Positions 8,502 to 44,335 of a stretch of DNA of 64,000 nt are shown piece by piece. A model generated the notes under the pieces. It worked only from the letters and a program-made list of their open reading frames with translations. It was not told where the DNA came from and searched no databases. This DNA comes from Longimicrobiales bacterium (GTDB lineage Bacteria > Gemmatimonadota > Gemmatimonadetes > Longimicrobiales > Gaopeijiaceae). Position 1 is the first letter of the stretch, and the number at the start of each line of letters is the position of its first letter. A program made the translations under genes and the position numbers. The stretch is taken from assembly GCA_965248195.1 (NCBI GenBank), contig CBDFIQ010000001.1, positions 1,056,001 to 1,120,000 on the forward strand. Direction: 5' to 3'.

Positions 8502-9819
8502 TGAATCACCCCGGGTTTGCCGGAGACTCCATCAGTTGAGAGGATGGAGTCATGAAAAGGAAAGGACAGTACTCCCCAGAGGTACGGGAGCGAGCCGTTC
8601 GGATGGTTTTCGAGCACGAGCCTGAGTACAGCTCACAGTGGGCGGCGATCTGCTCGATCTCGGAGAAGATCGGGTGCACGGCGGAGACGCTACGTAAATG
8701 GGTTCGACGAGCGGAGCGAGACACGGGGCAACGGCCCGGTCTCAAGACAGAAGAGCGTGAGCGACTGAAGGTGCTGGAGCGTGAGAATCGTGAGCTGAAG
8801 CGGGCGAACGAGATTCTGCGTAAGGCATCGGCGTATTTCGCACAGGCGGAGCTCGACCGCCGAGTTCGGTGATGGTGGCCTTCATCGACGATTACCGGCC
8901 CACGTACGGAGTCGAGCCGATCTGCGAGGTACTGCCGATCGCTCCGTCGACCTACTACACGCACAAGGCGATGCAGGCAGATCCGACGCTACGATCGGTC
9001 CGGGCTCAGCGCGACGAGATGCTGAAGCCGGAGATCCGTCGAGTGTGGATGCAGAACTTCCAGGTCTACGGGGCGAAGAAGGTGTGGAAGCAGCTGAACC
9101 GGGAAGGCATCACCGTGGCTCGATGCACGGTGGCTCGGCTCATGAAGGAACTGGAGCTTTGTGGGGTTACGCGAGGGCGGCGCTTCAAGGTGACAACGCA
9201 CACGGCGGAGGGCGACGAGCGCCCGCTGGACCTCGTGAACCGAGACTTCAGCGCGGCACGTCCCAACGAGCTGTGGGTCTCGGACCTCACGTACGTGCGG
9301 ACGGGCCATGCGTTTGTCTTCGTGGCGTTCGTGATCGATGCGTTCAGCCGTCGCATCGTCGGATGGCGGGTCTCGAACTCATTACGCAGTGACTTAGCGC
9401 TCGACGCTCTCGAGCAGGCGATCTGTGAACGCGAGGACGACGCAGACAAGCGCCTGGTGCATCACAGCGACCGCGGGGGGCAGTACCTGTCTATCCGCTA
9501 CACCGAGCGCCTGGCGTTGGCAGGCATCGAGCCGTCCGTAGGCAGCCGGGGGGATTCGTATGACAACGCCCTGGCCGAGACGATCATCGGACTCTACAAG
9601 ACCGAGCTCATTCGTCCACGCGGTCCGTGGCGCACCCTCGAAGACATCGAGCTCGCCACCCTCGAATGGGTCTGGTGGTTCAATCACCATCGCCTCTTCG
9701 AGCCCCACGGCCATATCCCGCCGGCCGAGTACGAAGAGTTGTATTATTCGCGTCAGGACGCTCCAGGTGAGCCTCTGACACTCAAGTCAAACAGTCTCCG
9801 ATGAACCCGGGGCGATTCA
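8502..9819 (+). mobile_element. IS3-family (IS51-like) element, orfA 8552..8872, orfB 8869..9804
   Basis: TG..CA ends with TIR TGAATCACCCCGGGTTT / TGAATCGCCCCGGGTTC; orfB WVSDLTYV, HHSDRGGQY, YDNALAE; no TSD. Confidence 0.95.
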
Positions 9820-10806: not shown

Positions 10807-10880
10807 TCGGGACGGCCGGATTCGAACCGGCGACCCCCTGAACCCCATTCAGGTGCGCTACCGAGCTGCGCCACGTCCCG
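10807..10880 (-). tRNA. tRNA-Pro(GGG)
   Basis: Cloverleaf CGGGACG...CGTCCCGA, anticodon loop ATGGGGT, GTTCGAATC T-loop. Confidence 0.95.
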
Positions 10881-11066: not shown

Positions 11067-12293
11067 TCACGGGCTCGTCGGGTCCATGATTCGCCCCATG
11101 AACAGCACGGCGCCGGTCTCGTCGTCCCGAATCAGGAACACGAAAGGCCTGTCGACGTGGAACGGGATGGGCTCGGGTGGCTCTTCTTCCCGCAAAGCTT
11201 CACCCAGGAAGTCCATCATGGTGGCTGCCGCCGCTTCGGTCCCCTTCTCATCCACCTTCACCCAAGCGTCGTGCATGACGTCGGAGATGCTCAGCCCCTC
11301 GGGATCATCGGTCACGCCGGAGAAGTCGGACCGAGTCGCATCGAAGCCCGCCTCGATGCCTAATCCCCGGAGCGCTTCACCGAGCCGGGACGTAGAGCGC
11401 ACCTCGAAGCGAGGAAGCTTGAGATCGACGAGGGTGGACTGCAATCCGGCAACGACGCGATCGAGGAATGCAGCGTCCAGCGCGTCCTCCAACGCCGCCA
11501 ACCGACCCGCGCCGGGAAGCAGGACCACCATCGACATGGCCTCGTAGGGAATCGACACGGCTTCCACGCCGAGCGCCTCGTCGGCCCAGTATCGGAGGTT
11601 CAGCTCTTGCTTCATCATCCTGACCTCCACCGTATCCGCTCCCCCCGATTCGGACGACAGGAAGAACGGCTCCGGGGAAGTGGAGGATGCGCTGAAGGGG
11701 TTGCTCCACGCCGCCTTGAAGTAGACGGCGTTCGCCAGCACGAGGCGGGTCAGAGGGTCCAGGCCCCCGGACGAGACCAGGGTCGGGATCTTGCCTTGGG
11801 TCTGCTCCGAGACCCATCCGTTGATGAGCCCCGCGGCCTCGGCGGCCGCGTTGAAGTCCAAAGAGAAGAGCTCGGCCCTGAAGTGGTCTGTCACCGTGTC
11901 ACGGTAGGACGCCAGGATCGGGTACGCTTCCTGGACGAACAAGGCGGTGGCGATGTTGAGGGTGAAGAGGTCCCTCGCGACTTGTCGGGGCTCGCCGTTT
12001 TCGTACTCCCACGATGTCTCCTTGCGATTAAACAGACTCTGGAGGAGCGCAGAAGCGCTCTCTTGCGCCGGTCCGTTCAGTCCGTGGAGGCCTAACACCG
12101 CTTCGATCTCCTCCCGGGTGGCCCCCCCCGCGCCGGGGACCAGCGCCGAAATGGCCATGGAGATGCTCAGGGGGGAAAAGAAGGAGTTGCCGCCGTCACC
12201 CAACTCACCATACAGGCGAAGGCCGAAGGCGTTGAAGCCCCTGGCGAGATCCTGTGCCCCGGACAAGGTCGCGGGAGACTCGGCGTCGTGCAT
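11067..12293 (-). CDS. serpin family protein
   Basis: FSPLSI, LANAVYFKAAW, hinge EKGTEAAAAT, FHVDRPFVFLIRD...LFMGRI. Confidence 0.95.
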   Translation of the reverse strand: MHDAESPATLSGAQDLARGFNAFGLRLYGELGDGGNSFFSPLSISMAISALVPGAGGATREEIEAVLGLHGLNGPAQESASALLQSLFNRKETSWEYENGEPRQVARDLFTLNIATALFVQEAYPILASYRDTVTDHFRAELFSLDFNAAAEAAGLINGWVSEQTQGKIPTLVSSGGLDPLTRLVLANAVYFKAAWSNPFSASSTSPEPFFLSSESGGADTVEVRMMKQELNLRYWADEALGVEAVSIPYEAMSMVVLLPGAGRLAALEDALDAAFLDRVVAGLQSTLVDLKLPRFEVRSTSRLGEALRGLGIEAGFDATRSDFSGVTDDPEGLSISDVMHDAWVKVDEKGTEAAAATMMDFLGEALREEEPPEPIPFHVDRPFVFLIRDDETGAVLFMGRIMDPTSP

Positions 12294-15377: not shown

Positions 15378-15451
<74 letters not shown>

Positions 15452-15456
15452 CTTTG

Positions 15457-15483
15457 AAACACGCCGCCTTCGGGCGGCGTTTG
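15457..15483 (+). terminator. hairpin ACGCCGCC-TTCG-GGCGGCGT followed by TTG
   Basis: Perfect 8-bp stem with UUCG loop, short U tract. Confidence 0.5.
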
Positions 15484-15517
15484 TATGTTCATACTTTCGG
15501 GATCCAGGGAGTCGTCG

Positions 15518-15610
15518 ATGTTCAGGACCGACGCGCAGCAGGCCCGCGGATGGACGATGGCGGACACGTGGTCTAGCCCGGGCGGGTGGGCCGTCGAGGG
15601 GCGCCTCTAG
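15518..15610 (+). CDS. putative 30-aa leader peptide MFRTDAQQARGWTMADTWSSPGGWAVEGRL
   Basis: RBS AGGGAG 6 nt upstream; three TGG codons; ends 30 nt before a terminator. Confidence 0.5.
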   Translation: MFRTDAQQARGWTMADTWSSPGGWAVEGRL

Positions 15611-15639
15611 CAAGCCCGGAGTGCGCACCCCTCGCCGAG

Positions 15640-15674
15640 CCGCCCGTCGCCGAAAGGCCGGGCGGATTTTTTTT
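15640..15674 (+). terminator. intrinsic terminator/attenuator immediately upstream of tRNA-Phe
   Basis: CCGCCCG..GCC-GAAA-GGC..CGGGCGG followed by A and T8. Confidence 0.75.
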
Positions 15675-15675
15675 G

Positions 15676-15748
15676 GGCCAGGTAGCTCAGTTGGTAGAGC
15701 ACGCGACTGAAAATCGTGGTGTCGGTGGTTCGATTCCGCCCCTGGCCA
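15676..15748 (+). tRNA. tRNA-Phe(GAA)
   Basis: cloverleaf, loop CTGAAAA. Confidence 0.95.
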
Positions 15749-15800
15749 CTGAAAGATTGAAATGGTGTAGACCGATGGGATGGCAAGGATCGGATGTCAG

Positions 15801-15873
15801 AGGTCCGTAGCTCAACTGGTAGAGCACCGGTCTCCAAAACCGGGGGTTGGGGGTTCGAGTCCCTCCGGGCCTG
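15801..15873 (+). tRNA. tRNA-Trp(CCA)
   Basis: cloverleaf, loop CTCCAAA. Confidence 0.95.
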
Positions 15874-15895
15874 TTCGAAAATTGGTAAGGGAGTC

Positions 15896-15967
15896 GCCCT
15901 CATCGTCTAATGGTTAGGACGCCAGGTTTTCAACCTGGTAATCGGGGTTCGATTCCCCGTGAGGGTA
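15896..15967 (+). tRNA. tRNA-Glu(TTC)
   Basis: cloverleaf, loop TTTTCAA. Confidence 0.9.
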
Positions 15968-15985
15968 TAATTGATGAAGTGCGTA

Positions 15986-16060
15986 GGGGCTGTAGCTCAG
16001 CTTGGTTAGAGTGCCGGTCTGTCACACCGGAGGTCGCGGGTTCAAGTCCCGTCAGCCCCG
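15986..16060 (+). tRNA. tRNA-Asp(GTC)
   Basis: cloverleaf, loop CTGTCAC. Confidence 0.95.
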
Positions 16061-16099
16061 CTCGAGACGCTGTTTGACAGAGATCAGGTTGATTGTGTT

Positions 16100-16172
<73 letters not shown>

Positions 16173-16210
16173 CTGGTGCGCCCGAACAGGGGTGCCCTAG
16201 GCACGAAGTC

Positions 16211-16295
16211 GCTCGGGTGGCGGAATTGGTAGACGCGCAGGGTTCAGGACCCTGTGGGGGTTAACCTCGTGAGGGTTCGAGTCCCTCCCCGAGCA
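16211..16295 (+). tRNA. tRNA-Leu(CAG)
   Basis: cloverleaf with long variable arm, loop TTCAGGA. Confidence 0.93.
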
Positions 16296-16328
16296 TGATT
16301 GGTGTGTAGGCCGGATGACATGGTTTGG

Positions 16329-16412
16329 GCCCACGTGCTGGAATTGGTAGACAGGCTGGTTTGAGGGACCAGTGTCGGAAACGGCGTACAGGTTCGAGTC
16401 CTGTCGTGGGCA
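16329..16412 (+). tRNA. tRNA-Leu(GAG)
   Basis: cloverleaf with long variable arm, loop TTGAGGG. Confidence 0.93.
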
Positions 16413-16543
16413 CTTTTTCGCGGACGCTTTTGGCGTAGGGCGGTGTCGGGACTGCGGACGGCCCTCGGTCGGCGTACGAATGTACGCCTCGGTCGGACCG
16501 CCTTGCCCTCCTACCCCTACACCAAAATCGCCTCGCGAAAAAG
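16413..16543. repeat. 131-bp imperfect palindrome (REP/MITE-like)
   Basis: CTTTTTCGCG/CGCGAAAAAG, TTTTGGCGTAGGG/CCCTACACCAAAA, inner GGCGTAC-GAAT-GTACGCC. Confidence 0.7.
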
Positions 16544-16640
16544 CGATGATCGGAAAGATACTTGGCGTGTTGATTGACGACGTCATTGTGATTCCTCGAG
16601 GACTTGGTCCTCTTGGATGACATTTTTTCATTGTGGTTTT

Positions 16641-16714
16641 GCGCCCGTAGCTCAGCTGGATAGAGTGCCTGGCTACGGACCAGGAGGTCGGGGGTTCGAA
16701 TCCCTCCGGGCGCG
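16641..16714 (+). tRNA. tRNA-Arg(ACG)
   Basis: cloverleaf, loop CTACGGA. Confidence 0.95.
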
Positions 16715-16736
16715 TTTTGATGATGGTGAGAGGATC

Positions 16737-16810
16737 GGGCGCGTAGCTCAGTTGGTTAGAGCGCTACGTTGACATCGTAGAGGTCAGAGGTTCGAGTCCT
16801 CTCGCGCCCA
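16737..16810 (+). tRNA. tRNA-Val(GAC)
   Basis: cloverleaf, loop TTGACAT. Confidence 0.95.
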
Positions 16811-16817
16811 TTGGGCC

Positions 16818-16890
16818 GGGGCCGTAGCTCAGTTGGGAGAGCGCAGCGTTCGCAACGCTGAGGTCAGGGGTTCGATTCCCCTCGGCTCCA
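16818..16890 (+). tRNA. tRNA-Ala(CGC)
   Basis: cloverleaf, loop TTCGCAA. Confidence 0.95.
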
Positions 16891-16896
16891 CTGGTG

Positions 16897-16969
16897 GCCA
16901 CCTTAGCTCAGCTGGTAGAGCACGTCACTCGTAATGACGGGGTCGTCGGTTCAAGTCCGACAGGTGGCT
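16897..16969 (+). tRNA. tRNA-Thr(CGT)
   Basis: cloverleaf, loop CTCGTAA. Confidence 0.95.
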
Positions 16970-16975
16970 CTGTCT

Positions 16976-17048
16976 TGCCCCTTGGTGTAACTGGCAACAC
17001 GCCGGATTCTGGTTCCGGAGAGTCTAGGTTCGAGCCCTAGAGGGGCAA
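16976..17048 (+). tRNA. tRNA-Gln(CTG)
   Basis: cloverleaf, loop TTCTGGT. Confidence 0.93.
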
Positions 17049-17057
17049 CTGTTCATG

Positions 17058-17141
17058 GGAGGGATGGCCGAGTGGCTTAAGGCGACGCCCTGCTAAGGCG
17101 TTGGACGCAAGTCCGCGTGGGTTCGAATCCCACTCCCTCCG
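17058..17141 (+). tRNA. tRNA-Ser(GCT)
   Basis: cloverleaf with long variable arm, loop CTGCTAA. Confidence 0.93.
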
Positions 17142-17210
17142 TTTTCGATAGATCGGCAGGGTGTCGTGGGATTCGTTCGAGCCTCCCAGTCCCCCGTTTG
17201 GTCTGAATTT

Positions 17211-17294
17211 GGATGGGTGGCCGAGCGGCTTAAGGCGCACGATTGGAAATCGTGTGGGTTAATACCCTCGTGGGTTCGAATCCCACCCCATCCG
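17211..17294 (+). tRNA. tRNA-Ser(GGA)
   Basis: cloverleaf with long variable arm, loop TTGGAAA. Confidence 0.93.
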
Positions 17295-17423
17295 CTTGGA
17301 GTTGCCGCAAGGCAACCAAGGGTGATTTGGGTCGTTGGGAACTCGGTCCCGCTCACTTTCCTGGGTGTTCGATGGCCCACGCGTCCCGTAGGAACGCGGT
17401 TTTGGGCGGTTGATGGTTGATTT

Positions 17424-17497
17424 CGGGGCGTGGCTCAGTCCGGTAGAGCGCTGCGTTCGGGACGCAGAGGTCCCCGGTTCAAATCCGGGCGCCCCGA
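17424..17497 (+). tRNA. tRNA-Pro(CGG)
   Basis: cloverleaf, loop TTCGGGA. Confidence 0.95.
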
Positions 17498-17513
17498 CTA
17501 GATTGCGACGTTT

Positions 17514-17596
17514 GGAGCCGTCGCATAATTGGTATTGCACCAGTCTCGAAAACTGGCGCCCGTGAGGGTGTGTGGGTTCGAGTCCCACCGGCTCCG
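17514..17596 (+). tRNA. tRNA-Ser(CGA), atypical D-arm
   Basis: GGAGCCG/CGGCTCCG acceptor stem, loop CTCGAAA, long variable arm. Confidence 0.85.
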
Positions 17597-17687: not shown

Positions 17688-19063
17688 GGTAGTGTCCCTA
17701 GATTTGTGTAAAAGCGGATAAGCCGGACAGGAGGGAAAGAAAAACGGAAGCTCCTCTGTTGTTGTTCACTGTCACATGAACCCGGGAGTCCGGGTCTGCA
17801 GAGCAGGCTCGGAACCGGAGAGGAGCTTCCGATGCAAGAGATTGTGGAGATCGGTCGGGCCACGCAAGACGAGCTACGCGATGATTTGCGCGAGCTGTTT
17901 CAAGGCGCGATCCGGCTGACGCTCGAGATGGTGCTGGAAGAGGAGCTGAAGGCCATGGTAGGTGCACGCCGCTTCGAGCGGGTGGGAAGCCGGAAGGACC
18001 ATAGGAACGGCACATACCTGAGGCGGCTGCTGACGAGCCTGGGGCAGATCGAGGTCGCCATGCCCCGGAGCCGGGACAACGGTTCGCCGGCCGACGTGAT
18101 CGGCCGCTACCAGCGCAGGAGCCCCGAGCTCGACGAGATGATGGTCGAGGCGTATGTGAGCGGCGTGTCACAGCGCAAGATGGGCGACGTCACCGAGGCG
18201 CTGATGGGCGAGCGTGTTGGGCGCTCGACGGTGAGTCGTGTGGCAAAACGGCTCGACGAGGCCGTGGAAGGGCTGCGCCGTGCGCCGATCGAGGGGCCTC
18301 ACCCCTATCTGTACCTGGACGCCACGTTCTTGGACGCCCGCTGGGCCCGCAAAGTCGAGAACGTGAGTGCGCTCGTGGCGTATGCAGTGGGCCCTGAGGG
18401 TCACCGACGGCTCCTGGCCGTCACGCTGGGCGCTGAGGAGTCGCAGCAGAGCTGGTCGGAGCTCCTCGAGCAACTCCAGGACCGCGGCCTCGGCGGTGTC
18501 GAGCTCGTGATCGCCGATGAGCACGCAGGCCTGGCAGCTGCGGTCCGCCGCTTCCTGCCCGAGGCACGCCGTCAGAGGTGTACGGTCCATCTGCAGCGTA
18601 ATGTGGGGGCGAGGGTCCCCCACCGCCTACGCAAGCGCGTGGCGCGTGAGGTCTCGGTGATCTTCCAGACATCCGGACTCGCCGAGGCGAAGAAGCTCCT
18701 GGGCGAGTTCGGCGCACGCTGGAAGAAGGAGCTGCCCGAGGCCGTGGAGGTCCTGGAGCGGGGCTTCGGGGCAGCGACGCAGTTCTACGCGTTCCCCGAG
18801 GCGCACTGGCCCCGGCTGCGTACCACCAACAGCCTCGAGCGGCTGCACGGCGAGATCAAACGCAGGATCAAGGCCGCCGGCGCCTTCCCGGACCGGGCCA
18901 GCGCCCTCAGGCTCATCACGGCCGTCGCACTCAGGACCACACACGTCTGGGGCGACCGGCGTTACCTCGACCTCTCACTCCTCCAGAAACAGGAGGTCGC
19001 CCAAGCAGCCTAGCCGAAGGCGAGGAGCTTCCTCCGCTTTTACACACAAATCGGGACTTGACC
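17688..19063 (+). mobile_element. IS256-family element copy 2 (transposase 17832..19013)
   Basis: Same TIRs as copy 1; 8-bp TSD GGGGGGTG. Confidence 0.97.
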
Positions 19064-20178: not shown

Positions 20179-22237
20179 TAGTTGCCTGCCGCCGTTGCCC
20201 CCGAGACGACGCGTGCAACTTCCTCCACCCAATTCGTGATGACGTGGATGCGATCGGCCGACGGCTCTGATGGGACATCGATCACCAGGAAGCGCCTTCC
20301 GTCGGGGTGGAGATCATACGAGCGCTCCCCCACGTTGAGGTAGGCCCCCTCGAAGATCAGCCTCGGTTGGCCGACCGTCAGTTCCGGCTCCGTCTCGATC
20401 CGGAACCTGTCAACGACAATGGGACACTCTACGGGATTAATTAGAGAGCAATATCCTGTGTGGTGAGGGAAGGGATGGGAGGATTGATGTAGACGGCCTC
20501 CGGGAGCGGTTTGGGCTTCGGCACACCTGTGACGAAGCGTTCGGGATGAGCGGCCCATGCTTCGCGGAGCACGGATTTCCTGCCGGCAATGACCTGATCG
20601 GCGTTCCCGAAGTGGACCTGCTCGGGGGTTAGCATCGAGATACCGCCATGGCGGTGCTCGGCATTGTACCAGCGGAAGAACGATCGACACAACGTCTTGG
20701 CCTGGCCCTGATCCCCGAACCGCCCGGGAAACGAGGGATGGTACTTCAAGGTTTTGAACTGAGCCTCGGAAAACGGGTTGTCATCCGACACCTGAGGCCG
20801 GCTCAACGAGCGAGTCACGCCGAGGTCAGCGAGAAGTTGAGCGGTGCATTGGCTCGTCATTGGAGCTCCCCGATCCGAGTGCAGGGTCAGGACCCGGGGC
20901 TGGACGCCATGCTTCAGGCAGCTCTGCTGGATCAACCGGCCGGCCAGGGCCGAGTTCTCCCGGTCCGCCACCATCCAGCCCACGACGTAGCGGCTGTAGA
21001 TGTCCATGATGACGTAGAGGTAGTAATAGCTCCACTTCTTCGGCCCGAGTAGCCGCGTGATATCCCAGGACCACACCTGGTTCGGCGCCGTGGCCATCAA
21101 CTCGGGCTTCTTGTACTCGGGATGGGTGCGCTGCGCCCGGCGTTCCTGAACCGGCACCTCGGAGGCCAGAACACGATACATCGTGCGTTCGCTGCACAGG
21201 TAGACCTCTTCGTCGAGCAGCGTGGCCACCACCTCGGCGGGTGAGCGGTCCACGAACCGCTCCGAACACAGCGTGTCGAAGACCTCGCCTCGTTCCGTCT
21301 CGCTCAATGCCCGGGCGGGCGTCGGGCGGGGCTGCCGTTGCCCGGTCGATGGGCCTCGACGACGGTAGAACGTCGATCGGGAGACCTCGAGAGCCGCGCA
21401 CGCCGGTTTTACACCGACGTGCTTAGCCAGCTCATCGGCCGCCTTCAAGAGTTCGTCCCGTCGTCGAGGCTTATCCCCAGCAGCCCCGCAACTTTTCCCT
21501 GCACGTCGATGATCAGGTGTGCCTTCCTGAGCTCATTCTCGAGCCGTGCGTTTTGCCGCTCCAGCTTGCGTACCTTCTCATCCAGCGGATTCCGCTCCGG
21601 CTTGCGGCCGCGTTTCTTCGACAGGGCCTTCAGCGACCCGCTATGCGCCGCCTTGCGCCACGTCGTCAGGTGCGACGAGTACAGGCCCTCGCGCCGCAGG
21701 AGCTGACCCACCTCGCCGGGCTCGGTGCACCGGTCCGCTTCTTCGACGATCCGCAGCTTGTACGATGGACTGAACCGCCGGCGTAGCGGCCTATCTACTA
21801 CCTCCGGGTCCGCAGGAGCTGCCGCGCTTCGCTTGGCCTCCCCGATTCCAGGGGCACTACCATTCTCTTCCATTCTCTCTCGCAGTCCCAACATGTTCGT
21901 TTTCTCTGCCTTCGCCCTACTCTAATTCTTTGCGTGCTCCGTGTCTCACGTACGTTGGCAGAGAGGGATCGGGACCGCCCACCAACGGTTGCTACTTCGG
22001 TAGTAGATCTCGCTGCCGTCGCTCGACCACAGGGGCTCTTCCGCGTTGTCGTGCACCGAGACTTTCTCCCGTGACGCTCCGGTGCGAGGGAAGGGTTCGA
22101 CATAGACCTGATACTGGCCAGAGATATCCGAAGTATAGGCAACCCAGTCCCCGTTCGGCTCGAGAACAGCTCCCCACTCGTTCGCGTCAGTAGCGAGGTA
22201 GACCTCTGCTTGACTCAACGTATCGACCATCCACAGG
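20178..22237 (-). pseudogene. C-terminal remnant of a TolB-like beta-propeller protein (of the type fused to Ser/Thr kinases), split by an IS3-like element
   Basis: WVAYTSDISGQYQVYVEPFP, EPLWSSDGSEIYYRS (21968..22237) continues as YDLHPDGRRFL..IHVITNW (20178..20400). Confidence 0.7.
20401..21967 (-). mobile_element. IS3-like element copy A (1567 bp; orfA 21445..21894, orfB 20441..21448)
   Basis: DDE motifs WSWDIT, HSDRG, DNPFSE; orfA/orfB TTGA overlap; 3-bp TSD ATC. Confidence 0.93.
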
Positions 22238-23436
22238 TGAATCGCCCCGGGTTCATCGGAGACTGTTTGACTTGAGTGTCAGAGGCTCACCTGGAGCGTC
22301 CTGACGCGAATAATACAACTCTTCGTACTCGGCCGGCGGGATATGGCCGTGGGGCTCGAAGAGGCGATGGTGATTGAACCACCAGACCCATTCGAGGGTG
22401 GCGAGCTCGATGTCTTCGAGGGTGCGCCACGGACCGCGTGGACGAATGAGCTCGGTCTTGTAGAGTCCGATGATCGTCTCGGCCAGGGCGTTGTCATACG
22501 AATCCCCCCGGCTGCCTACGGACGGCTCGATGCCTGCCAACGCCAGGCGCTCGGTGTAGCGGATAGACAGGTACTGCCCCCCGCGGTCGCTGTGATGCAC
22601 CAGGCGCTTGTCTGCGTCGTCCTCGCGTTCACAGATCGCCTGCTCGAGAGCGTCGAGCGCTAAGTCACTGCGTAATGAGTTCGAGACCCGCCATCCGACG
22701 ATGCGACGGCTGAACGCATCGATCACGAACGCCACGAAGACAAACGCATGGCCCGTCCGCACGTACGTGAGGTCCGAGACCCACAGCTCGTTGGGACGTG
22801 CCGCGCTGAAGTCTCGGTTCACGAGGTCCAGCGGGCGCTCGTCGCCCTCCGCCGTGTGCGTTGTCACCTTGAAGCGCCGCCCTCGCGTAACCCCACAAAG
22901 CTCCAGTTCCTTCATGAGCCGAGCCACCGTGCATCGAGCCACGGTGATGCCTTCCCGGTTCAGCTGCTTCCACACCTTCTTCGCCCCGTAGACCTGGAAG
23001 TTCTGCATCCACACTCGACGGATCTCCGGCTTCAGCATCTCGTCGCGCTGAGCCCGGACCGATCGTAGCGTCGGATCTGCCTGCATCGCCTTGTGCGTGT
23101 AGTAGGTCGACGGAGCGATCGGCAGTACCTCGCAGATCGGCTCGACTCCGTACGTGGGCCGGTAATCGTCGATGAAGGCCACCATCACCGAACTCGGCGG
23201 TCGAGCTCCGCCTGTGCGAAATACGCCGATGCCTTACGCAGAATCTCGTTCGCCCGCTTCAGCTCACGATTCTCACGCTCCAGCACCTTCAGTCGCTCAC
23301 GCTCTTCTGTCTTGAGACCGGGCCGTTGCCCCGTGTCTCGCTCCGCTCGTCGAACCCATTTACGTAGCGTCTCCGCCGTGCACCCGATCTTCTCCGAGAT
23401 CGAGCAGATCGCCGCCCACTGTGAGCTGTACTCAGG
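22238..23436 (-). mobile_element. IS3-family (IS51-like) copy 2, left end deleted
   Basis: orfB identical in protein sequence to that of the 8502..9819 element; orfA cut by IS3-like copy B. Confidence 0.93.
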
Positions 23437-25003
23437 CCCTCTCTGCCAACGTACGTGAGACACGGAGCACGCAAAGAATTAGAGTAGGGCGAAGGCAGAG
23501 AAAACGAACATGTTGGGACTGCGAGAGAGAATGGAAGAGAATGGTAGTGCCCCTGGAATCGGGGAGGCCAAGCGAAGCGCGGCAGCTCCTGCGGACCCGG
23601 AGGTAGTAGATAGGCCGCTACGCCGGCGGTTCAGTCCATCGTACAAGCTGCGGATCGTCGAAGAAGCGGACCGGTGCACCGAGCCCGGCGAGGTGGGTCA
23701 GCTCCTGCGGCGCGAGGGCCTGTACTCGTCGCACCTGACGACGTGGCGCAAGGCGGCGCATAGCGGGTCGCTGAAGGCCCTGTCGAAGAAACGCGGCCGC
23801 AAGCCGGAGCGGAATCCGCTGGATGAGAAGGTACGCAAGCTGGAGCGGCAAAACGCACGGCTCGAGAATGAGCTCAGGAAGGCACACCTGATCATCGACG
23901 TGCAGGGAAAAGTTGCGGGGCTGCTGGGGATAAGCCTCGACGACGGGACGAACTCTTGAAGGCGGCCGATGAGCTGGCTAAGCACGTCGGTGTAAAACCG
24001 GCGTGCGCGGCTCTCGAGGTCTCCCGATCGACGTTCTACCGTCGTCGAGGCCCATCGACCGGGCAACGGCAGCCCCGCCCGACGCCCGCCCGGGCATTGA
24101 GCGAGACGGAACGAGGCGAGGTCTTCGACACGCTGTGTTCGGAGCGGTTCGTGGACCGCTCACCCGCCGAGGTGGTGGCCACGCTGCTCGACGAAGAGGT
24201 CTACCTGTGCAGCGAACGCACGATGTATCGTGTTCTGGCCTCCGAGGTGCCGGTTCAGGAACGCCGGGCGCAGCGCACCCATCCCGAGTACAAGAAGCCC
24301 GAGTTGATGGCCACGGCGCCGAACCAGGTGTGGTCCTGGGATATCACGCGGCTACTCGGGCCGAAGAAGTGGAGCTATTACTACCTCTACGTCATCATGG
24401 ACATCTACAGCCGCTACGTCGTGGGCTGGATGGTGGCGGACCGGGAGAACTCGGCCCTGGCCGGCCGGTTGATCCAGCAGAGCTGCCTGAAGCATGGCGT
24501 CCAGCCCCGGGTCCTGACCCTGCACTCGGATCGGGGAGCTCCAATGACGAGCCAATGCACCGCTCAACTTCTCGCTGACCTCGGCGTGACTCGCTCGTTG
24601 AGCCGGCCTCAGGTGTCGGATGACAACCCGTTTTCCGAGGCTCAGTTCAAAACCTTGAAGTACCATCCCTCGTTTCCCGGGCGGTTCGGGGATCAGGGCC
24701 AGGCCAAGACGTTGTGTCGATCGTTCTTCCGCTGGTACAATGCCGAGCACCGCCATGGCGGTATCTCGATGCTAACCCCCGAGCAGGTCCACTTCGGGAA
24801 CGCCGATCAGGTCATTGCCGGCAGGAAATCCGTGCTCCGCGAAGCATGGGCCGCTCATCCCGAACGCTTCGTCACAGGTGTGCCGAAGCCCAAACCGCTC
24901 CCGGAGGCCGTCTACATCAATCCTCCCATCCCTTCCCTCACCACACAGGATATTGCTCTCTAATTAATCCCGTAGAGTGTCCCATTGTCGTTGACAGGTT
25001 CCG
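23437..25003 (+). mobile_element. IS3-like element copy B (orfA 23510..23959, orfB 23956..24963)
   Basis: Same as copy A; no TSD (adjacent deletion). Confidence 0.93.
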
Positions 25004-25388
25004 GACCGGACCCGAGGTCGTCGCGTTCCTCTTCGCCCCAATCGTCCTCTTCGCGCTCGCGAGTCTCGTATTTCCTCGGGACAACCGTGAGGTCGATTTG
25101 AACACGTACTTCATTGAGAATCGACGGCCTTTCTTTGGCCTCTTGGCGTTCCTCTCTGTGGCCGTCCTCGGTGGGCCGTTCGTGTTCTATGACGTTGAAG
25201 CATTCGGCGCGGTAATCGGGGTGGAGCTAGACGCCACGGGAGCTGCTCTGAGGGTCCTCATCTTTGTTTCGATCTGCGGGCTTCTGGCGTGGTCATCGAA
25301 CGCCAAGGTCCATCTCGCGTTCGCTGTCATCTCACTCGTCCTAGCCCTCAGCCTGGTCGGTACTCCTTTATTGGTACTGTCCGGATAG
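25004..25388 (+). pseudogene. 3' remnant of a membrane-protein cassette gene
   Basis: Hydrophobic helices, DLNTYFIENRRPFF; starts at IS junction, ends just before attC. Confidence 0.6.
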
Positions 25389-25494
25389 CGGGTCTTGCGG
25401 CGGATGCGGTACCATCTAACAAGCGATTGCTGCGGTCGCGGTAAGCATCAGGCTCGCGCGCTCCGCTTGCGGAGGGCATCTTAGCCGCGCAGCA

Positions 25495-26951
25495 TCTATA
25501 AGGTGAAGGGAGTCAACAGGGCGTAGCCCTCCCTTACCCGTCCGGGGTCCCGGAGGGGTGGCTCGGTCCACTGGTCTGTAGCTCAAGGCCTGCGTGATCA
25601 TCTTCCGTTTTTCATCCTTCAGTACCAACGTCGCGTCCGATCTTGGGTGAGTCTCCTCTCACGAGGAACTCAGGCATCTATTCAGGTTTCATCCCAGCGC
25701 GGGGATGTCCGAAGATCTGCTATGCGAGCGGGGGGCTCAATCAGAATCTGAGGGTCGTCGTGCGACATGCTGCGCGCGGAGCTCACCCCTGTCGTGGTAC
25801 GGTCCATCATCGTGTGTCATCTCAGTTTGATCGAGCCACGGGTTCATCGTGCCAGACCTCACCCGTACGGAGCATCGCGTGCACAGCACGAGCGAGGCGC
25901 CGAGCGGTAGCGACCCGAGCGACCTGCCACCCGAGCCGTTGCCTGATCAGTTCGTACGACTGTGATAGCCAGCTGTCGGGCGCGTGAGTGACGTGGCTCA
26001 CGACGGTCCGGACGAAGGTGCCCCTCAGCCAACGGTTGGCCCCGGCGGGGATCGATCCGTGGCGGATGGGCCGGAGCCCTGACTGTGAGGAGCGAGGGGC
26101 TAGACCGGCGTAGCTGACCAGGTGCCCCGGTGTACGAAATCGTTTGATGGGCAACGTCTCGGTGGCGATGAGCAATGCCCGATAGGAACCGACGCCCGGG
26201 ATGGTCTCGAGCAGAGCTACAGCGGGGACCTTGCGGCCTACGTGCTCAACCCTGCGATCAAGCGTTTTGATCATCGGCACGATCTGGTCGATGAGTTCCC
26301 ACTGCATGTCGATGAACAGACGCCGCTCGGCTCCGAGCAGCGGCCACGCCACGTCATGCACCCACTGGCGTCCATCCTGGGTGAGCAGACGCCCACGCTC
26401 CAGATGAAGCCCGACGTTGTGGATCTGGGCATGGATGCGGTTCACCATGCGTGTGCGTTCGCGTACGAGTCGTGCCCGGTTGCGTAGCAGTACCGCCTGC
26501 TCCCGCTGCTCGACGCACTTCGGATGGACCTCGGGGATGAGGCCCGCGAGTCGCATACGCGCCAACAACTCGGCGTCGATGTCGTCACTCTTGTAGTTGG
26601 ACTCGGCGATGACTCGGAGCCGCTTGGCGTGAGCGAGCACGAAGTCGATCCCCCGCTCTTGGAGTCGATCGAAGAGCCACGGCCAGGCCGGACTCGTCTC
26701 GACGACCACCTCCAGGGGCTGATACTGCTCCAGTAGATCATTGAGCCGATCCTCTTGCGTGTTCTTGATCCGGATGGGTCCGGCAACGAGCTGACCTGTG
26801 TTGCTCACGATGGCGATCACCGAATACGTTGCGTGAGCATCGATTCCTGCGACAAACATGGCTGGCCTCCTTGGGTTGGGTGCCGCAGGCCTTTGAGCAA
26901 GATCAGCGTAACGCCACGCTCGAGTGAGGTCAGCCTTTCGCCTTATAAGAT
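25495..26951 (-). mobile_element. IS110-family (IS1111-type) element copy 1 (1457 bp; recombinase 25822..26859)
   Basis: DEDD RuvC-like motifs GID, VVET, KSDDID; YAGLAPRSSQSG; sub-terminal IRs TATAAGGCGAAAGG / TATAAGGTGAAGG; CA core at both ends; long 3' non-coding region. Confidence 0.93.
25600..25815 (-). ncRNA. putative bridge/seek RNA (approximate limits)
   Basis: Contains CGCGCAGCA and GATTCTG (attC target halves) and ATAGATG and AAGATC (circle-junction halves) in internal loops. Confidence 0.75.
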
Positions 26952-27009
26952 CAGAATCGCAGAGACGTTAGAACGCGCCAAGAGGTTCAGGACAGGAGAG
27001 GCACAACCC

Positions 27010-28107
27010 ATGACTATGTCCGGCCAAGCCCGCTCCAAAACCGAGCAGCCCTTCTCGCCAGGTCGACTCGCCGATCCTAACAGAGTCTTGAAGACCGATC
27101 CTCGCGCCGACCCTCGAATGGTGGCTGCCCTCGCCGAATTTGGCTTCGACGAGGCCCCACCGCCCGCACCGGTCACCGCCGAATCGCCACTCGACGAAAT
27201 ACTCGAGTTCATTGCCGTTGCGGAGCCGGGCTACGAAGACCTCTTCACAGCCTGGCTAGCGGACTTACCTCCGATTGAGAGTGTGGAGAGGCGTACCGAG
27301 GTGATAAGGGGAGTGGACGACAACGACATCAGCCTCTTTATCCACAAGCCCCAGAATGCTTCTGGCCCCTTACCCTGTGTGTATCATATCCACGGAGGTG
27401 CCATGGTCATTCTGGAGGCCGCCGGCTCTCTCGCCACGCGCTGGCGCGACGAGCTTTCCGCTGTCGGAATGGTGGTGGTGGGCGTGGAGTTTCGGAACGG
27501 CGCAGGGAAGCTCGGCAACCACCCGTTCCCTGCAGGACTCAACGATTGCATGAGCGGGCTACAGTGGACGTTCGATAACAAGGCCGCGCTTGGGATTTCC
27601 ACGATTGTGGTGTCCGGTGAGTCAGGCGGCGGAAACCTCAGTCTTGCCGTGAGTCTAAAGGCCAAGAGGGATGACAAGCTGAAGCAGATCGATGGCACGT
27701 ATGCGCTCTGTCCGTACATCTCGAACGCCTGGGCCAACAAAATCCAAGAGCTTCCATCCCTCTACGAGAACGACGACTACTTCATGAGCTGCAGCACGTT
27801 GGGCGCGTGTGCTGTCGCGTACGACCCTGCACACGAGAACGATCACAATCCGCTTTGCTGGCCCTATTTCGCCGAGACTGAGGAGCTGCAGGGTCTGCCC
27901 CCACATGCCATATCGGTCAATGAGCTAGACCCTTTGCGGGACGAGGGGCTGCAGTACTACCAGATGCTCATGGCGGCCGGCGTGAGTGTCTACGGCCGGA
28001 CCGTCAACGGCACCTGCCACGCTGGCGATATGATTTTTCGAAAAGTGCTCCCGGAAGTATCAGCGGCCACGATTCGAGACATCAAGGGGTTCGCGGACTC
28101 GTTGTAG
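27010..28107 (+). CDS. HSL-family alpha/beta hydrolase (esterase)
   Basis: HGGA oxyanion motif, GESGG nucleophile, DPLRDEG, GTCH. Confidence 0.9.
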   Translation: MTMSGQARSKTEQPFSPGRLADPNRVLKTDPRADPRMVAALAEFGFDEAPPPAPVTAESPLDEILEFIAVAEPGYEDLFTAWLADLPPIESVERRTEVIRGVDDNDISLFIHKPQNASGPLPCVYHIHGGAMVILEAAGSLATRWRDELSAVGMVVVGVEFRNGAGKLGNHPFPAGLNDCMSGLQWTFDNKAALGISTIVVSGESGGGNLSLAVSLKAKRDDKLKQIDGTYALCPYISNAWANKIQELPSLYENDDYFMSCSTLGACAVAYDPAHENDHNPLCWPYFAETEELQGLPPHAISVNELDPLRDEGLQYYQMLMAAGVSVYGRTVNGTCHAGDMIFRKVLPEVSAATIRDIKGFADSL

Positions 28108-33176: not shown

Positions 33177-34730
33177 CACGAGATTGCTGCTGTCGCGTGT
33201 GACATTAGGCCCGCGCGCTTCGCCTGCGGTCACCATTTTAGCCGCGCAGCATCTATAAGGTGAAGGGAGTCAACAGGGCGTAGCCCTCCCTTACCCGTCC
33301 GGGGTCCCGGAGGGGTGGCTCGGTCCACTGGTCTGTAGCTCAAGGCCTGCGTGATCATCTTCCGTTTTTCATCCTTCAGTACCAACGTCGCGTCCGATCT
33401 TGGGTGAGTCTCCTCTCACGAGGAACTCAGGCATCTATTCAGGTTTCATCCCAGCGCGGGGATGTCCGAAGATCTGCTATGCGAGCGGGGGGCTCAATCA
33501 GAATCTGAGGGTCGTCGTGCGACATGCTGCGCGCGGAGCTCACCCCTGTCGTGGTACGGTCCATCATCGTGTGTCATCTCAGTTTGATCGAGCCACGGGT
33601 TCATCGTGCCAGACCTCACCCGTACGGAGCATCGCGTGCACAGCACGAGCGAGGCGCCGAGCGGTAGCGACCCGAGCGACCTGCCACCCGAGCCGTTGCC
33701 TGATCAGTTCGTACGACTGTGATAGCCAGCTGTCGGGCGCGTGAGTGACGTGGCTCACGACGGTCCGGACGAAGGTGCCCCTCAGCCAACGGTTGGCCCC
33801 GGCGGGGATCGATCCGTGGCGGATGGGCCGGAGCCCTGACTGTGAGGAGCGAGGGGCTAGACCGGCGTAGCTGACCAGGTGCCCCGGTGTACGAAATCGT
33901 TTGATGGGCAACGTCTCGGTGGCGATGAGCAATGCCCGATAGGAACCGACGCCCGGGATGGTCTCGAGCAGAGCTACAGCGGGGACCTTGCGGCCTACGT
34001 GCTCAACCCTGCGATCAAGCGTTTTGATCATCGGCACGATCTGGTCGATGAGTTCCCACTGCATGTCGATGAACAGACGCCGCTCGGCTCCGAGCAGCGG
34101 CCACGCCACGTCATGCACCCACTGGCGTCCATCCTGGGTGAGCAGACGCCCACGCTCCAGATGAAGCCCGACGTTGTGGATCTGGGCATGGATGCGGTTC
34201 ACCATGCGTGTGCGTTCGCGTACGAGTCGTGCCCGGTTGCGTAGCAGTACCGCCTGCTCCCGCTGCTCGACGCACTTCGGATGGACCTCGGGGATGAGGC
34301 CCGCGAGTCGCATACGCGCCAACAACTCGGCGTCGATGTCGTCACTCTTGTAGTTGGACTCGGCGATGACTCGGAGCCGCTTGGCGTGAGCGAGCACGAA
34401 GTCGATCCCCCGCTCTTGGAGTCGATCGAAGAGCCACGGCCAGGCCGGACTCGTCTCGACGACCACCTCCAGGGGCTGATACTGCTCCAGTAGATCATTG
34501 AGCCGATCCTCTTGCGTGTTCTTGATCCGGATGGGTCCGGCAACGAGCTGACCTGTGTTGCTCACGATGGCGATCACCGAATACGTTGCGTGAGCATCGA
34601 TTCCTGCGACAAACATGGCTGGCCTCCTTGGGTTGGGTGCCGCAGGCCTTTGAGCAAGATCAGCGTAACGCCACGCTCGAGTGAGGTCAGCCTTTCGCCT
34701 TATAAGATCAGAATCGCAGAGACGTTATAC
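33171..34730 (+). repeat. attC site 3, interrupted by IS1111-type element
   Basis: ATCTAAC-ACGAG-ATTGCTGC ... GCA|IS|CAGAAT-CGCAGAGAC-GTTATAC. Confidence 0.85.
33252..34708 (-). mobile_element. IS1111-type element copy 2 (recombinase 33579..34616)
   Basis: Same length, ends and protein as copy 1, same insertion point in attC. Confidence 0.93.
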
Positions 34731-35990: not shown

Positions 35991-37557
35991 CGGAACCTGT
36001 CAACGACAATGGGACACTCTACGGGATTAATTAGAGAGCAATATCCTGTGTGGTGAGGGAAGGGATGGGAGGATTGATGTAGACGGCCTCCGGGAGCGGT
36101 TTGGGCTTCGGCACACCTGTGACGAAGCGTTCGGGATGAGCGGCCCATGCTTCGCGGAGCACGGATTTCCTGCCGGCAATGACCTGATCGGCGTTCCCGA
36201 AGTGGACCTGCTCGGGGGTTAGCATCGAGATACCGCCATGGCGGTGCTCGGCATTGTACCAGCGGAAGAACGATCGACACAACGTCTTGGCCTGGCCCTG
36301 ATCCCCGAACCGCCCGGGAAACGAGGGATGGTACTTCAAGGTTTTGAACTGAGCCTCGGAAAACGGGTTGTCATCCGACACCTGAGGCCGGCTCAACGAG
36401 CGAGTCACGCCGAGGTCAGCGAGAAGTTGAGCGGTGCATTGGCTCGTCATTGGAGCTCCCCGATCCGAGTGCAGGGTCAGGACCCGGGGCTGGACGCCAT
36501 GCTTCAGGCAGCTCTGCTGGATCAACCGGCCGGCCAGGGCCGAGTTCTCCCGGTCCGCCACCATCCAGCCCACGACGTAGCGGCTGTAGATGTCCATGAT
36601 GACGTAGAGGTAGTAATAGCTCCACTTCTTCGGCCCGAGTAGCCGCGTGATATCCCAGGACCACACCTGGTTCGGCGCCGTGGCCATCAACTCGGGCTTC
36701 TTGTACTCGGGATGGGTGCGCTGCGCCCGGCGTTCCTGAACCGGCACCTCGGAGGCCAGAACACGATACATCGTGCGTTCGCTGCACAGGTAGACCTCTT
36801 CGTCGAGCAGCGTGGCCACCACCTCGGCGGGTGAGCGGTCCACGAACCGCTCCGAACACAGCGTGTCGAAGACCTCGCCTCGTTCCGTCTCGCTCAATGC
36901 CCGGGCGGGCGTCGGGCGGGGCTGCCGTTGCCCGGTCGATGGGCCTCGACGACGGTAGAACGTCGATCGGGAGACCTCGAGAGCCGCGCACGCCGGTTTT
37001 ACACCGACGTGCTTAGCCAGCTCATCGGCCGCCTTCAAGAGTTCGTCCCGTCGTCGAGGCTTATCCCCAGCAGCCCCGCAACTTTTCCCTGCACGTCGAT
37101 GATCAGGTGTGCCTTCCTGAGCTCATTCTCGAGCCGTGCGTTTTGCCGCTCCAGCTTGCGTACCTTCTCATCCAGCGGATTCCGCTCCGGCTTGCGGCCG
37201 CGTTTCTTCGACAGGGCCTTCAGCGACCCGCTATGCGCCGCCTTGCGCCACGTCGTCAGGTGCGACGAGTACAGGCCCTCGCGCCGCAGGAGCTGACCCA
37301 CCTCGCCGGGCTCGGTGCACCGGTCCGCTTCTTCGACGATCCGCAGCTTGTACGATGGACTGAACCGCCGGCGTAGCGGCCTATCTACTACCTCCGGGTC
37401 CGCAGGAGCTGCCGCGCTTCGCTTGGCCTCCCCGATTCCAGGGGCACTACCATTCTCTTCCATTCTCTCTCGCAGTCCCAACATGTTCGTTTTCTCTGCC
37501 TTCGCCCTACTCTAATTCTTTGCGTGCTCCGTGTCTCACGTACGTTGGCAGAGAGGG
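35991..37557 (-). mobile_element. IS3-like element copy C
   Basis: Same as copy A; TSD AGA. Confidence 0.93.
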
Positions 37558-40848: not shown

Positions 40849-42224
40849 GGTAGTGTCCCTAGATTTGTGTAAAAGCGGATAAGCTGGACAGGAGGGAAAG
40901 AAAAACGGAAGCTCCTCTGTTGTTGTTCACTGTCACATGAACCCGGGAGTCCGGGTCTGCAGAGCAGGCTCGGAACCGGAGAGGAGCTTCCGATGCAAGA
41001 GATTGTGGAGATCGGTCGGGCCACGCAAGACGAGCTACGCGATGATTTGCGCGAGCTGTTTCAAGGCGCGATCCGGCTGACGCTCGAGATGGTGCTGGAA
41101 GAGGAGCTGAAGGCCATGGTAGGTGCACGCCGCTTCGAGCGGGTGGGAAGCCGGAAGGACCATAGGAACGGCACATACCTGAGGCGGCTGCTGACGAGCC
41201 TGGGGCAGATCGAGGTCGCCATGCCCCGGAGCCGGGACAACGGTTCGCCGGCCGACGTGATCGGCCGCTACCAGCGCAGGAGCCCCGAGCTCGACGAGAT
41301 GATGGTCGAGGCGTATGTGAGCGGCGTGTCACAGCGCAAGATGGGCGACGTCACCGAGGCGCTGATGGGCGAGCGTGTTGGGCGCTCGACGGTGAGTCGT
41401 GTGGCAAAACGGCTCGACGAGGCCGTGGAAGGGCTGCGCCGTGCGCCGATCGAGGGGCCTCACCCCTATCTGTACCTGGACGCCACGTTCTTGGACGCCC
41501 GCTGGGCCCGCAAAGTCGAGAACGTGAGTGCGCTCGTGGCGTATGCAGTGGGCCCTGAGGGTCACCGACGGCTCCTGGCCGTCACGCTGGGCGCTGAGGA
41601 GTCGCAGCAGAGCTGGTCGGAGCTCCTCGAGCAACTCCAGGACCGCGGCCTCGGCGGTGTCGAGCTCGTGATCGCCGATGAGCACGCAGGCCTGGCAGCT
41701 GCGGTCCGCCGCTTCCTGCCCGAGGCACGCCGTCAGAGGTGTACGGTCCATCTGCAGCGTAATGTGGGGGCGAGGGTCCCCCACCGCCTACGCAAGCGCG
41801 TGGCGCGTGAGGTCTCGGTGATCTTCCAGACATCCGGACTCGCCGAGGCGAAGAAGCTCCTGGGCGAGTTCGGCGCACGCTGGAAGAAGGAGCTGCCCGA
41901 GGCCGTGGAGGTCCTGGAGCGGGGCTTCGGGGCAGCGACGCAGTTCTACGCGTTCCCCGAGGCGCACTGGCCCCGGCTGCGTACCACCAACAGCCTCGAG
42001 CGGCTGCACGGCGAGATCAAACGCAGGATCAAGGCCGCCGGCGCCTTCCCGGACCGGGCCAGCGCCCTCAGGCTCATCACGGCCGTCGCACTCAGGACCA
42101 CACACGTCTGGGGCGACCGGCGTTACCTCGACCTCTCACTCCTCCAGAAACAGGAGGTCGCCCAAGCAGCCTAGCCGAAGGCGAGGAGCTTCCTCCGCTT
42201 TTACACACAAATCGGGACTTGACC
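40849..42224 (+). mobile_element. IS256-family element copy 3 (transposase 40993..42174)
   Basis: Same element; no TSD. Confidence 0.95.
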
Positions 42225-44234: not shown

Positions 44235-44335
44235 ATCTAACGGATATGCGATTCTGCTGCGCGTCCAACATGCCCTCCGCGTGCGTAGCGCGCGACCCTC
44301 ACGCTTCACGTGACAGTAGCAATCGCTTGTTAGAT
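44235..44335 (-). repeat. attC site 7 (intact, 101 bp)
   Basis: minus strand ATCTAAC-AAGCG-ATTGCTAC ... GCAGAAT-CGCATATCC-GTTAGAT. Confidence 0.9.

Follow-up and report, generated by a model that had tools for sequence, protein, structure and literature searches.

Within 64,000 nucleotides of the genome of a Longimicrobiales bacterium (contig CBDFIQ010000001.1, positions 1,056,001 to 1,120,000; this whole stretch is referred to below as the window), four copies of one insertion sequence (IS) interrupt attC recombination sites of an integron, each at the same dinucleotide. The question that this locus raises is how the element finds that one place. The earlier note, made by a model from the letters of the window, had proposed that an IS1111-type recombinase is programmed against attC by a 3' guide RNA. 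Our analysis leads us to much the same view: this is very probably an IS1111-type element with a DEDD recombinase that is aimed at attC by an RNA from its 327-bp 3' region, of the kind called seekRNA or bridge RNA. The target guides and the stems of the proposed RNA held up well and its left donor segment moderately so, while a fourth segment (AAGATC) and the description of the system as complete did not.

IS1111 elements, as characterised by Siddiquee et al. 2024 (PMC11187229), have subterminal inverted repeats of 7-17 bp, non-coding DNA 3' of the gene, and a protein of 330-350 aa with the motif GL-P----S/T-G. By these criteria the element is of the IS1111 type in every anatomical respect (see Table 1 for coordinates). 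It contains a single open reading frame (ORF), which in copy 1 is preceded by 92 bp of non-coding DNA and followed by 327 bp. ATAAGG.GAA.GG, a few bases in from each end, occurs both in the left end (ATCTTATAAGGCGAAAGG) and in the reverse-complemented right end (TCTATAAGGTGAAGGG). The recombinase carries the DEDD_Tnp_IS110 (PF01548, E 3.2e-16) and Transposase_20 (PF02371, E 2.5e-15) domains and passes the NCBI model NF033542 'IS110 family RNA-guided transposase' with 194 bits against a cut-off of 140. Since the single sequence gave no match when searched against solved structures, a profile was made from 18 family proteins, and this matched the solved bridge recombinases ISCro4 (E 3e-14) and IS621 (E 4e-13). 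Among the 18 sequences the catalytic residues D7, E54, D92 and D95, which align to ISCro4, are invariant or nearly so, and S260 and G261 are invariant.

Copies were located by blastn of 25400-27000 against the window and the whole genome (4.86 Mb, two contigs), and their junctions were read from the sequence. The left junctions of all four window copies read GCGATTCTG/ATCTTATAAGG and the three right junctions in the window read CCTTATAGA/TGCTGCGCGGCTAA, with the core TG at 25493-94, 26952-53, 33250-51, 45020-21, 47387-88 and 50413-14. This TG is a core shared by element and target, since an exact target with nothing inserted carries a single TG. Around copy 1, attC runs from 25412, after the upstream cassette ORF, to a terminal GTTAGAA at about 26975, which puts the element in the L' arm at a distance of 13 nt from R'. 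In four of four window copies the transposase gene has the opposite orientation to the cassette ORFs beside it. The claims that the four copies share one CA dinucleotide of the attC L' box, that the transposase always lies on the attC bottom strand and that the empty target reads GATTC-TG-CTGCGCG were all borne out by these data, the last of them by a natural site within the window.

The same specificity was found genome-wide, where 17 blast pieces represent 14 insertions. All 13 readable left junctions end in GATTCTG, and 9 of the 11 readable right junctions start with TGCTGCGCG, the remaining two being off by one base. The nine insertions having both flanks readable split an exact copy of the target. 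Unsplit, the exact 14-mer occurs twice in the 4.86-Mb genome (0.06 expected from base composition), both times within attC sites, and at least seven further empty attC sites differ from it by one mismatch. Insertion is thus sequence-specific, with a shared core and no further duplication: 14 insertions use one site, which has a single TG when empty. The insertion flanks are attC sites of about 100 bp in a CTAAC...GTTAG frame, and the ORFs neighbouring the IS copies are cassette-like. An iterated nhmmer search found 35 attC sites in the genome, in several clusters.

Read in IS sense, the 3' region has the form GGGG-UGA-GCUC C [GCGCGCAGC] A UGUCG-CACGA-CGAC CC [UCAGAUUC] UG AUU GAGC-CCCC, followed by a multi-stem domain. 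A 9-mer and then a 7-mer matching the two sides of the target, 5-60 nt apart, arose in 3 of 200,000 shuffles of the 327-nt region. In copy 3, whose guide domains are intact at 46190-46340 despite the insertion that splits its 3' region, the right target guide reads GTGCGCAGCA, so that the match is 8 nt rather than 9. The positions previously assigned to the four guide-like segments were correct. The predicted long guide RNA has about the size of published long seekRNAs, for which 148-172 nt are reported (PMC13604230).

Relatives were gathered from 40 loci, one genome per species, of which 39 are labelled Gemmatimonadota and one a Deltaproteobacteria metagenome-assembled genome; their proteins are 47-91% identical to the recombinase of the element. 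A hidden Markov model of the first RNA domain placed it directly 3' of the gene, on the same strand, in 36 of the 40, the other four being 5' gene fragments. In the alignment the stems are conserved while the two guide windows differ between lineages. Base pairs were counted in 29 sequences (L027, L030 and both L034 copies, with disrupted 3' regions, were left out), where 90.2% of cells pair in the proposed structure versus 34-51% with slid partners, and the covariation score is 0.161 versus 0.092 for shuffled data (0/500). The outer stem, the inner hairpin and the donor hairpin have 95-100% of cells paired and show compensatory changes; the stems named from the single sequence are thus kept across relatives.

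Junctions in the relatives were located by end motifs alone, and the guide windows were then compared with the adjacent flank, the two core bases being omitted. The mean contiguous match of true pairs is 4.4 nt for the left guide (22 rows) and 5.0 nt for the right guide (25 rows), as compared to 1.3 and 1.0 nt for cross-pairs. A permutation test used one representative per guide class. The left guide, with 13 classes, gave an observed sum of 59 (permutation mean 19.4, maximum 43) and the right guide, with 16 classes, a sum of 81 (permutation mean 17.5, maximum 48), and on neither side was any of the permutations as high (0/20,000 each). Both target segments change with their flanks across lineages, which is the behaviour on which the earlier note had staked its reading. 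The signal is far beyond the permutations despite shared ancestry. As in a seekRNA or bridge RNA, the two segments match opposite target strands around the core and vary with the target, and the published order of IS1111 seekRNAs is kept, with the segment that pairs with the top strand on the 5' side (PMC11187229). Examples of targets that were deduced from the guides of other lineages and then found at their junctions are included in Table 1.

The guide also varies within this genome (46198-46207; C1:498443; C2:1909506-1910027). Two of the 11 guide RNA genes have GTGCGCAGC, versus GCGCGCAGC in the other nine. One truncated copy adjoins TGCTGCGCA; because this flank fits the variant guide GTGCGCAGC better than the copy's own guide, this single case hints at guidance in trans.

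On the donor side, the left donor segment AUAGAUG lies just before a conserved hairpin and reads AUAGGUG, AUAGCUG or AUGGCUG in relatives. Over seven distinct guide/end pairs, 32 of 35 positions are the same in this segment and the right end, a value reached by 125 of 20,000 permutations; there is little variation, with one base missed in L043 and one in L035/L039. The proposal that ATAGATG is a left donor guide is thus supported moderately, by covariation with the right end of the element. As in a bispecific bridge RNA of the IS621 type, AUAG(A/G/C)UG tracks the last bases of that end.

AAGATC had been put forward as the matching right donor guide, and here the data point elsewhere. The left end is ATCTT in the window's clade versus ACCTT, ATCCT or ACTTT in the relatives' other lineages. 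Because GATC stays constant in lineages with differing left ends (it is invariant in 27 of 29 aligned sequences), the segment looks unlike a guide, and the two bases 5' of GATC vary (AA, GA, CG, TG, CA) without tracking the end. We lean towards AAGATC being part of the scaffold. In that case GAUC would close the donor multiloop by pairing with an upstream GAUC (25714-25717) and the left end would be read by the protein via the subterminal inverted repeat, the guide RNA otherwise acting as described. Besides the constancy of GATC and the drift of its neighbours, a scaffold role is favoured by the GAUC/GAUC helix (helix 5), which can pair in 99.1% of cells, and by the donor-binding nucleotides that many IS1111 orthologues are described as having in a multiloop (Durrant et al., PMC11208160). 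This helix never varies, however, so covariation is silent on it, and in the window's clade the segment has full 6-nt complementarity to G-ATCTT; the single A-C mismatch in other lineages might be tolerated, and the left ends compared are of four kinds only. The lack of covariation in the expected right-donor guide raises the question of how IS1111 elements read their left end.

Taken together, these features suggest the following mechanism. An RNA would be transcribed downstream of the gene and would aim the recombinase. Its first domain would be a stem-enclosed loop with two guide windows parted by a small hairpin, where the 5' window, CGCGCAGCA, would pair with the IS-sense target strand at TG-CTGCGCG and the 3' window, GAUUCUG, with the opposite strand at GATTC-TG. 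With the two windows pairing around it, recombination would take place at the shared TG, in the L' arm of attC and 13 nt from the R' core, and would always leave the element antisense to the cassettes. AUAGAUG, in the second, multi-stem domain, corresponds to the right end and the core, and its probable role is to help keep the joined ends of the excised circle in place. For the left end, recognition probably runs via the subterminal inverted repeat, whether by the protein or by pairing yet to be found. We infer RNA production, recombinase binding, the circular intermediate and strand exchange at TG from the published mechanism of the family.

Several results weigh against an RNA-guided element of this kind or temper the evidence for it. 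The right-guide match is 0 in L027, L044 and L045 and 2-3 nt in L035, L039, L040, L050 and L053, and the left-guide match is 0 in L039; 6 of the 16 right-guide classes match at most 3 nt beyond the core (L027, L035, L040, L044, L050; L053 at row level). Flanks are rearranged in some of the poorly matching copies. Because the guide classes have common ancestry and attC-like targets recur in several of them, the permutations overstate independence. The structure was drawn from the same 29 sequences, so the pair counts favour it somewhat, and the helix formed by columns 88-92 and 132-136 pairs in 62.7% of cells only. Single-sequence free-energy folding had been proposed earlier as a check of the guide region; run on 25620-25800 and 25495-25821, it did not stand out from shuffles (z -1.5 and -0.5) and did not reproduce the two-domain structure; because it was uninformative, comparative evidence was used instead. 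Rfam reported no family on the 3' region at gathering scores, nor at E up to 10. Two further places were searched for a right-donor guide, namely the block CAUAG(C/G)AGAUC and the strand that leads from the last hairpin to GAUC; neither tracks the left end, and no other segment was found to do so.

Expression data temper the picture further. A scan of the linear element found no sigma-70-like promoter or intrinsic terminator. The sole junction-spanning promoter-like site on the modelled circle is weak (TTGACT-19 nt-TCTTAT, 9/12 matches); its TTGAC is conserved in the right ends of relatives. Relatives of the gene and of the 3' region, at 90-99% identity, occur in RNA-library contigs from four marine-sediment runs (three studies), among them one contig of 385 nt that spans 25486-25846. 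Such contigs show the presence of the relatives' sequence only, with neither strand nor ends, and may stem from DNA, and the claim of a 'complete' RNA-guided system is thus not supported. The right end joined back to the left end was not seen among the contigs of the four runs, which is no evidence of its absence.

Could the protein itself recognise the sequence or structure of attC, the 3' matches being by-products such as traces of past recombination with targets? attC sites are structured, other attC-specific elements exist and the guide RNA here is a prediction, all of which would accord with such a reading. It fails to account, however, for lineages with proteins 57-66% identical and the same scaffold that carry different guide windows, each matching its own flanks, non-attC palindromes included; moreover, the published mechanism of the family is RNA-guided (PMC11187229, PMC11208160). 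We consider recognition by the protein highly improbable. The conserved 3' region might instead act as DNA, in the form of a folded single strand or a target mimic in synapsis, rather than as a transcript. One locus can be cited for this: at L045:3570-4112 the right end meets, at TG, a second partial copy whose start lies exactly after the left-guide DNA (GATTC-TG/ACTGAGCC). It looks as if the guide-coding DNA itself served there as a target half-site, and such DNA would thus be usable as a recombination site. Yet the compensatory changes in the stems include G-U type pairs (UG in 3 sequences for helix 2 and in 20 for helix 8), which fit RNA better than DNA, and the seekRNAs of related elements are reported to co-purify with transposases (PMC11187229). 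An action as DNA also seems to us very unlikely, and guidance of the recombinase by a 3' RNA is the explanation that we retain.

IS1111 elements in attC sites are reportedly the subject of work by Tetu & Holmes (2008) and Post & Hall (2009). The seekRNA or bridge RNA mechanism was first described in 2024 (Siddiquee et al., PMC11187229; Durrant et al., PMC11208160). ISKpn4, ISPst6 and ISPa25 are reported to target attC, with seekRNAs of 82-86 nt that carry both target matches and co-purify with the transposase (PMC11187229), and a bridge RNA was predicted for 93% of IS1111 elements (PMC11208160). Our element is like ISKpn4, ISPst6, ISPa25 and ISPa21 in its IS1111-type anatomy, with subterminal inverted repeats, a long 3' non-coding region and a transposase of about 340 aa, and like the seekRNAs of this group its predicted guide RNA lies downstream of the gene, the top-strand match being 5' of the bottom-strand match. 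Insertion into attC antisense to the cassettes, seen here at all window copies and in a CTAAC...GTTAG frame genome-wide, is also the habit of the known elements (PMC3001079). These cut between AA and CG or between AG and CG, 6 nt from GTTAG and at the 5' (R''/L'') end of attC (PMC13604230, PMC3001079), whereas for the element described here the cut falls at the 3' end of attC, at a TG of the L' arm 13 nt away from R'. The known group is proteobacterial, unlike the relatives found here, which belong to Gemmatimonadota at 39 of 40 loci. Among the IS110-family transposases on 72,556 plasmids, none exceeds 35.9% identity to the recombinase. ISKpn4 and its kin were compared here by their published descriptions. 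A tblastn search of the plasmids gave distant IS110-family matches only, and the one Klebsiella match that was inspected lies outside an integron.

With IS621 and ISCro4 the element shares a DEDD plus serine recombinase (by profile), a target loop reading both strands around a core dinucleotide and a donor-matching segment. It differs from them, as they are described (Durrant et al. 2024, PMC11208160; PDB 8wt6, 9t56), in that its RNA lies 3' rather than 5' of the gene and the guide order is reversed. The core is TG and not CT, the subterminal inverted repeats are long, the donor domain is a multiloop, and no segment of it was validated as a right-donor guide. The sister lineages L031, L037/L038 and L056 aim the same scaffold at palindromes (the L037 target is GTTTC-NG-CTGAAAC), and ISPa11 and other IS1111 elements also target repetitive extragenic palindromes (REP) or palindromes; unlike these, the window's clade and a second clade aim at attC. 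In a tree of 18 family proteins the window's clade forms one group in which all members have the same target (support 100/100). The second clade (99/99) has four members, which aim at three or four other places in attC-like sites; these lie 3 nt deeper in the site, at the corresponding position of a second attC type and in the central loop. The term 'attC-like' was here judged by eye from the CTAAC...GTTAG frame. The other lineages of the family aim at palindromes or short repeats.

Three things are new here: the phylum of the host, an insertion point that lies on the L'/R' arm (13 nt from R') instead of the R''/L'' arm, and the sister lineages aimed at other attC registers. Apart from the two 2024 papers, a literature search turned up nothing on Gemmatimonadota carrying IS1111 elements or on bridge RNA in connection with attC. 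One possible history, which we offer tentatively, is that a Gemmatimonadota-specific IS1111 branch took up attC targeting independently of the proteobacterial IS1111-attC group and then re-aimed one scaffold at several attC registers (at 13 nt from the R box, 3 nt deeper than that, at the matching position of the second attC type and in the central loop), filling nearly every exact target in this genome. If this were true, such elements would be site-saturating parasites, or locks, of chromosomal integrons, and their lineages would form a natural series of guide reprogramming on one structured target. No new principle is involved. The family is a clean natural data set for a young field, with one scaffold carrying at least a dozen natural guide pairs, each beside its own target, and it supports design rules for IS1111-type guides, which are less studied than those of IS621. 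It also indicates that RNA-guided elements attack integron attC sites in hosts other than Proteobacteria, and that they do so at another position within the site.

Table 1. Features of the element, its copies, its predicted guide RNA and its targets. Coordinates are those of the window; locus handles denote related loci.
Feature	Position	Strand	Remarks
attC 5' part (R''-L''-loop-part of L') split by copy 1	25412-25494	plus	remaining L'-R' part 26952-26975
IS copy 1, complete, 1457 bp	25495-26951	minus	blastn; core TG (CA on + strand) at 25493-25494 and 26952-26953
IS copy 2, complete	33252-34708	minus	IS proper 100% identical (whole-genome search); 99% with wider 25400-27000 query including attC flanks
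IS copy 3, 96.8% identical	45022-46422 + 47325-47386	plus	3' region split at 46422/47325 by 903-bp internally deleted IS3-type element
IS copy 4, cut off at IS position 1161	50415-51575	plus	truncated by IS256-type element just before guide RNA region; transposase ORF intact
Empty exact target GATTC-TG-CTGCGCG, one TG (GATTCTGCTGCGCG)	44250-44263	plus	inside intact attC (~44236-44335)
Transposase/recombinase gene, 345 aa	25822-26859	minus	DEDD RuvC-like domain and Transposase_20 domain; motif GLAPRSSQSG
Right end with subterminal inverted repeat CCCTTCACCTTATAGA	25495-25511	minus	conserved TTGAC just inside
Left end with subterminal inverted repeat ATCTTATAAGGCGAAAGG	26935-26951	minus	read from sequence
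Predicted long guide RNA, about 163 nt	25627-25789	minus	target-binding and donor multiloop domains; ends inferred from conservation limits
Target-binding domain	25730-25789	minus	outer stem GGGG/CCCC and GCUC/GAGC around both guide windows and inner hairpin; helices 1-3 95-100% paired, compensatory changes at 2 pairs
Inner hairpin GUCG/CGAC	25763-25766 / 25754-25757	minus	separates the two guide windows
Right target guide CGCGCAGCA	25768-25776	minus	complementary to IS-sense TG-CTGCGCG (core and right flank)
Left target guide GATTC-TG	25742-25748	minus	identical to left flank and core, hence pairs with other strand
Left donor guide candidate ATAGA-TG	25675-25681 (46292-46298 in copy 3)	minus (copy 1)	identical to IS right end and core
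Donor-domain conserved hairpin UGAGU.../...ACUCA	25648-25672	minus	helix 8: 98.9% paired, 2 pairs changed on both sides
AAGATC segment	25639-25644 (46329-46334 in copy 3)	minus (copy 1)	complementary to G-ATCTT, window's clade only; could pair with GAUCUU 25712-25717
Integron integrase gene remnant	56697-57260	minus	TIGR02249 positions 120-307, 238.7 bits (cut-off 265)
Guide-read target at junction	L031		TTAC-TG/CG-CGGTAAC
Guide-read target at junction	L033		CCTC-TG-TGGTGAA
Guide-read target at junction	L036		TTCTGC-TG-CGCGACCA
Guide-read target at junction	L042		TCTC-TG-TGTCTC
Guide-read target at junction	L043		GAGC-TG-CAAGGCGA
Guide-read target at junction	L037, L038		GTTTC-TG/AG-CTGAAAC

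For this genome, the element explains the fragmented cassette array and the split recombination site in most cassettes of this attC subtype. The best integron-integrase match of the genome is a remnant that has two in-frame TAG stops and is without its N-terminal part (the N-terminal third). This integrase looks dead, and the integron is probably no longer able to move its own cassettes. A tyrosine recombinase fragment at 5974-6561 was considered as the integron integrase and rejected as Xer-like, the remnant at 56697-57260 being the better candidate.

Other mobile elements, of the IS256 and IS3 types, are numerous in the array. An IS256-type element (Mutator family) is present in six near-identical window copies (6983-8358, 17688-19063, 40849-42224, 49026-50404, 51576-52951 and 55335-56711), one of which truncates IS1111 copy 4 before the guide region while another abuts the integrase remnant. 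An IS3-type element has four copies (20401-21967, 23436-25013, 35991-37557 and 53577-55144) in addition to the deleted 903-bp copy (46423-47324) within IS1111 copy 3. Two of these, at 23.4-25.0 kb (+) and 36.0-37.6 kb (-), form an inverted pair that flanks a segment with cassettes facing opposite to those at 42-50 kb, which suggests an inversion between the IS3-type copies. Two ALIL pseudoknots, the frameshift signal of IS3-family elements, at 8830-8946 (+) and 23111-23227 (-) mark two copies of a second IS3-type element (Rfam).

An array of 17 tRNA genes within about 2.2 kb (15378-17596, +) adjoins the IS-rich region, and one further tRNA lies at 10807-10880 (-) (Rfam). The cassette-like genes include those for a serine beta-lactamase-family protein (PF00144; 28396-29865, +), an alpha/beta hydrolase (27000-28107, +) and a Fic/DOC protein (48595-48999, +), and a serpin gene lies outside the array (11067-12293, -).

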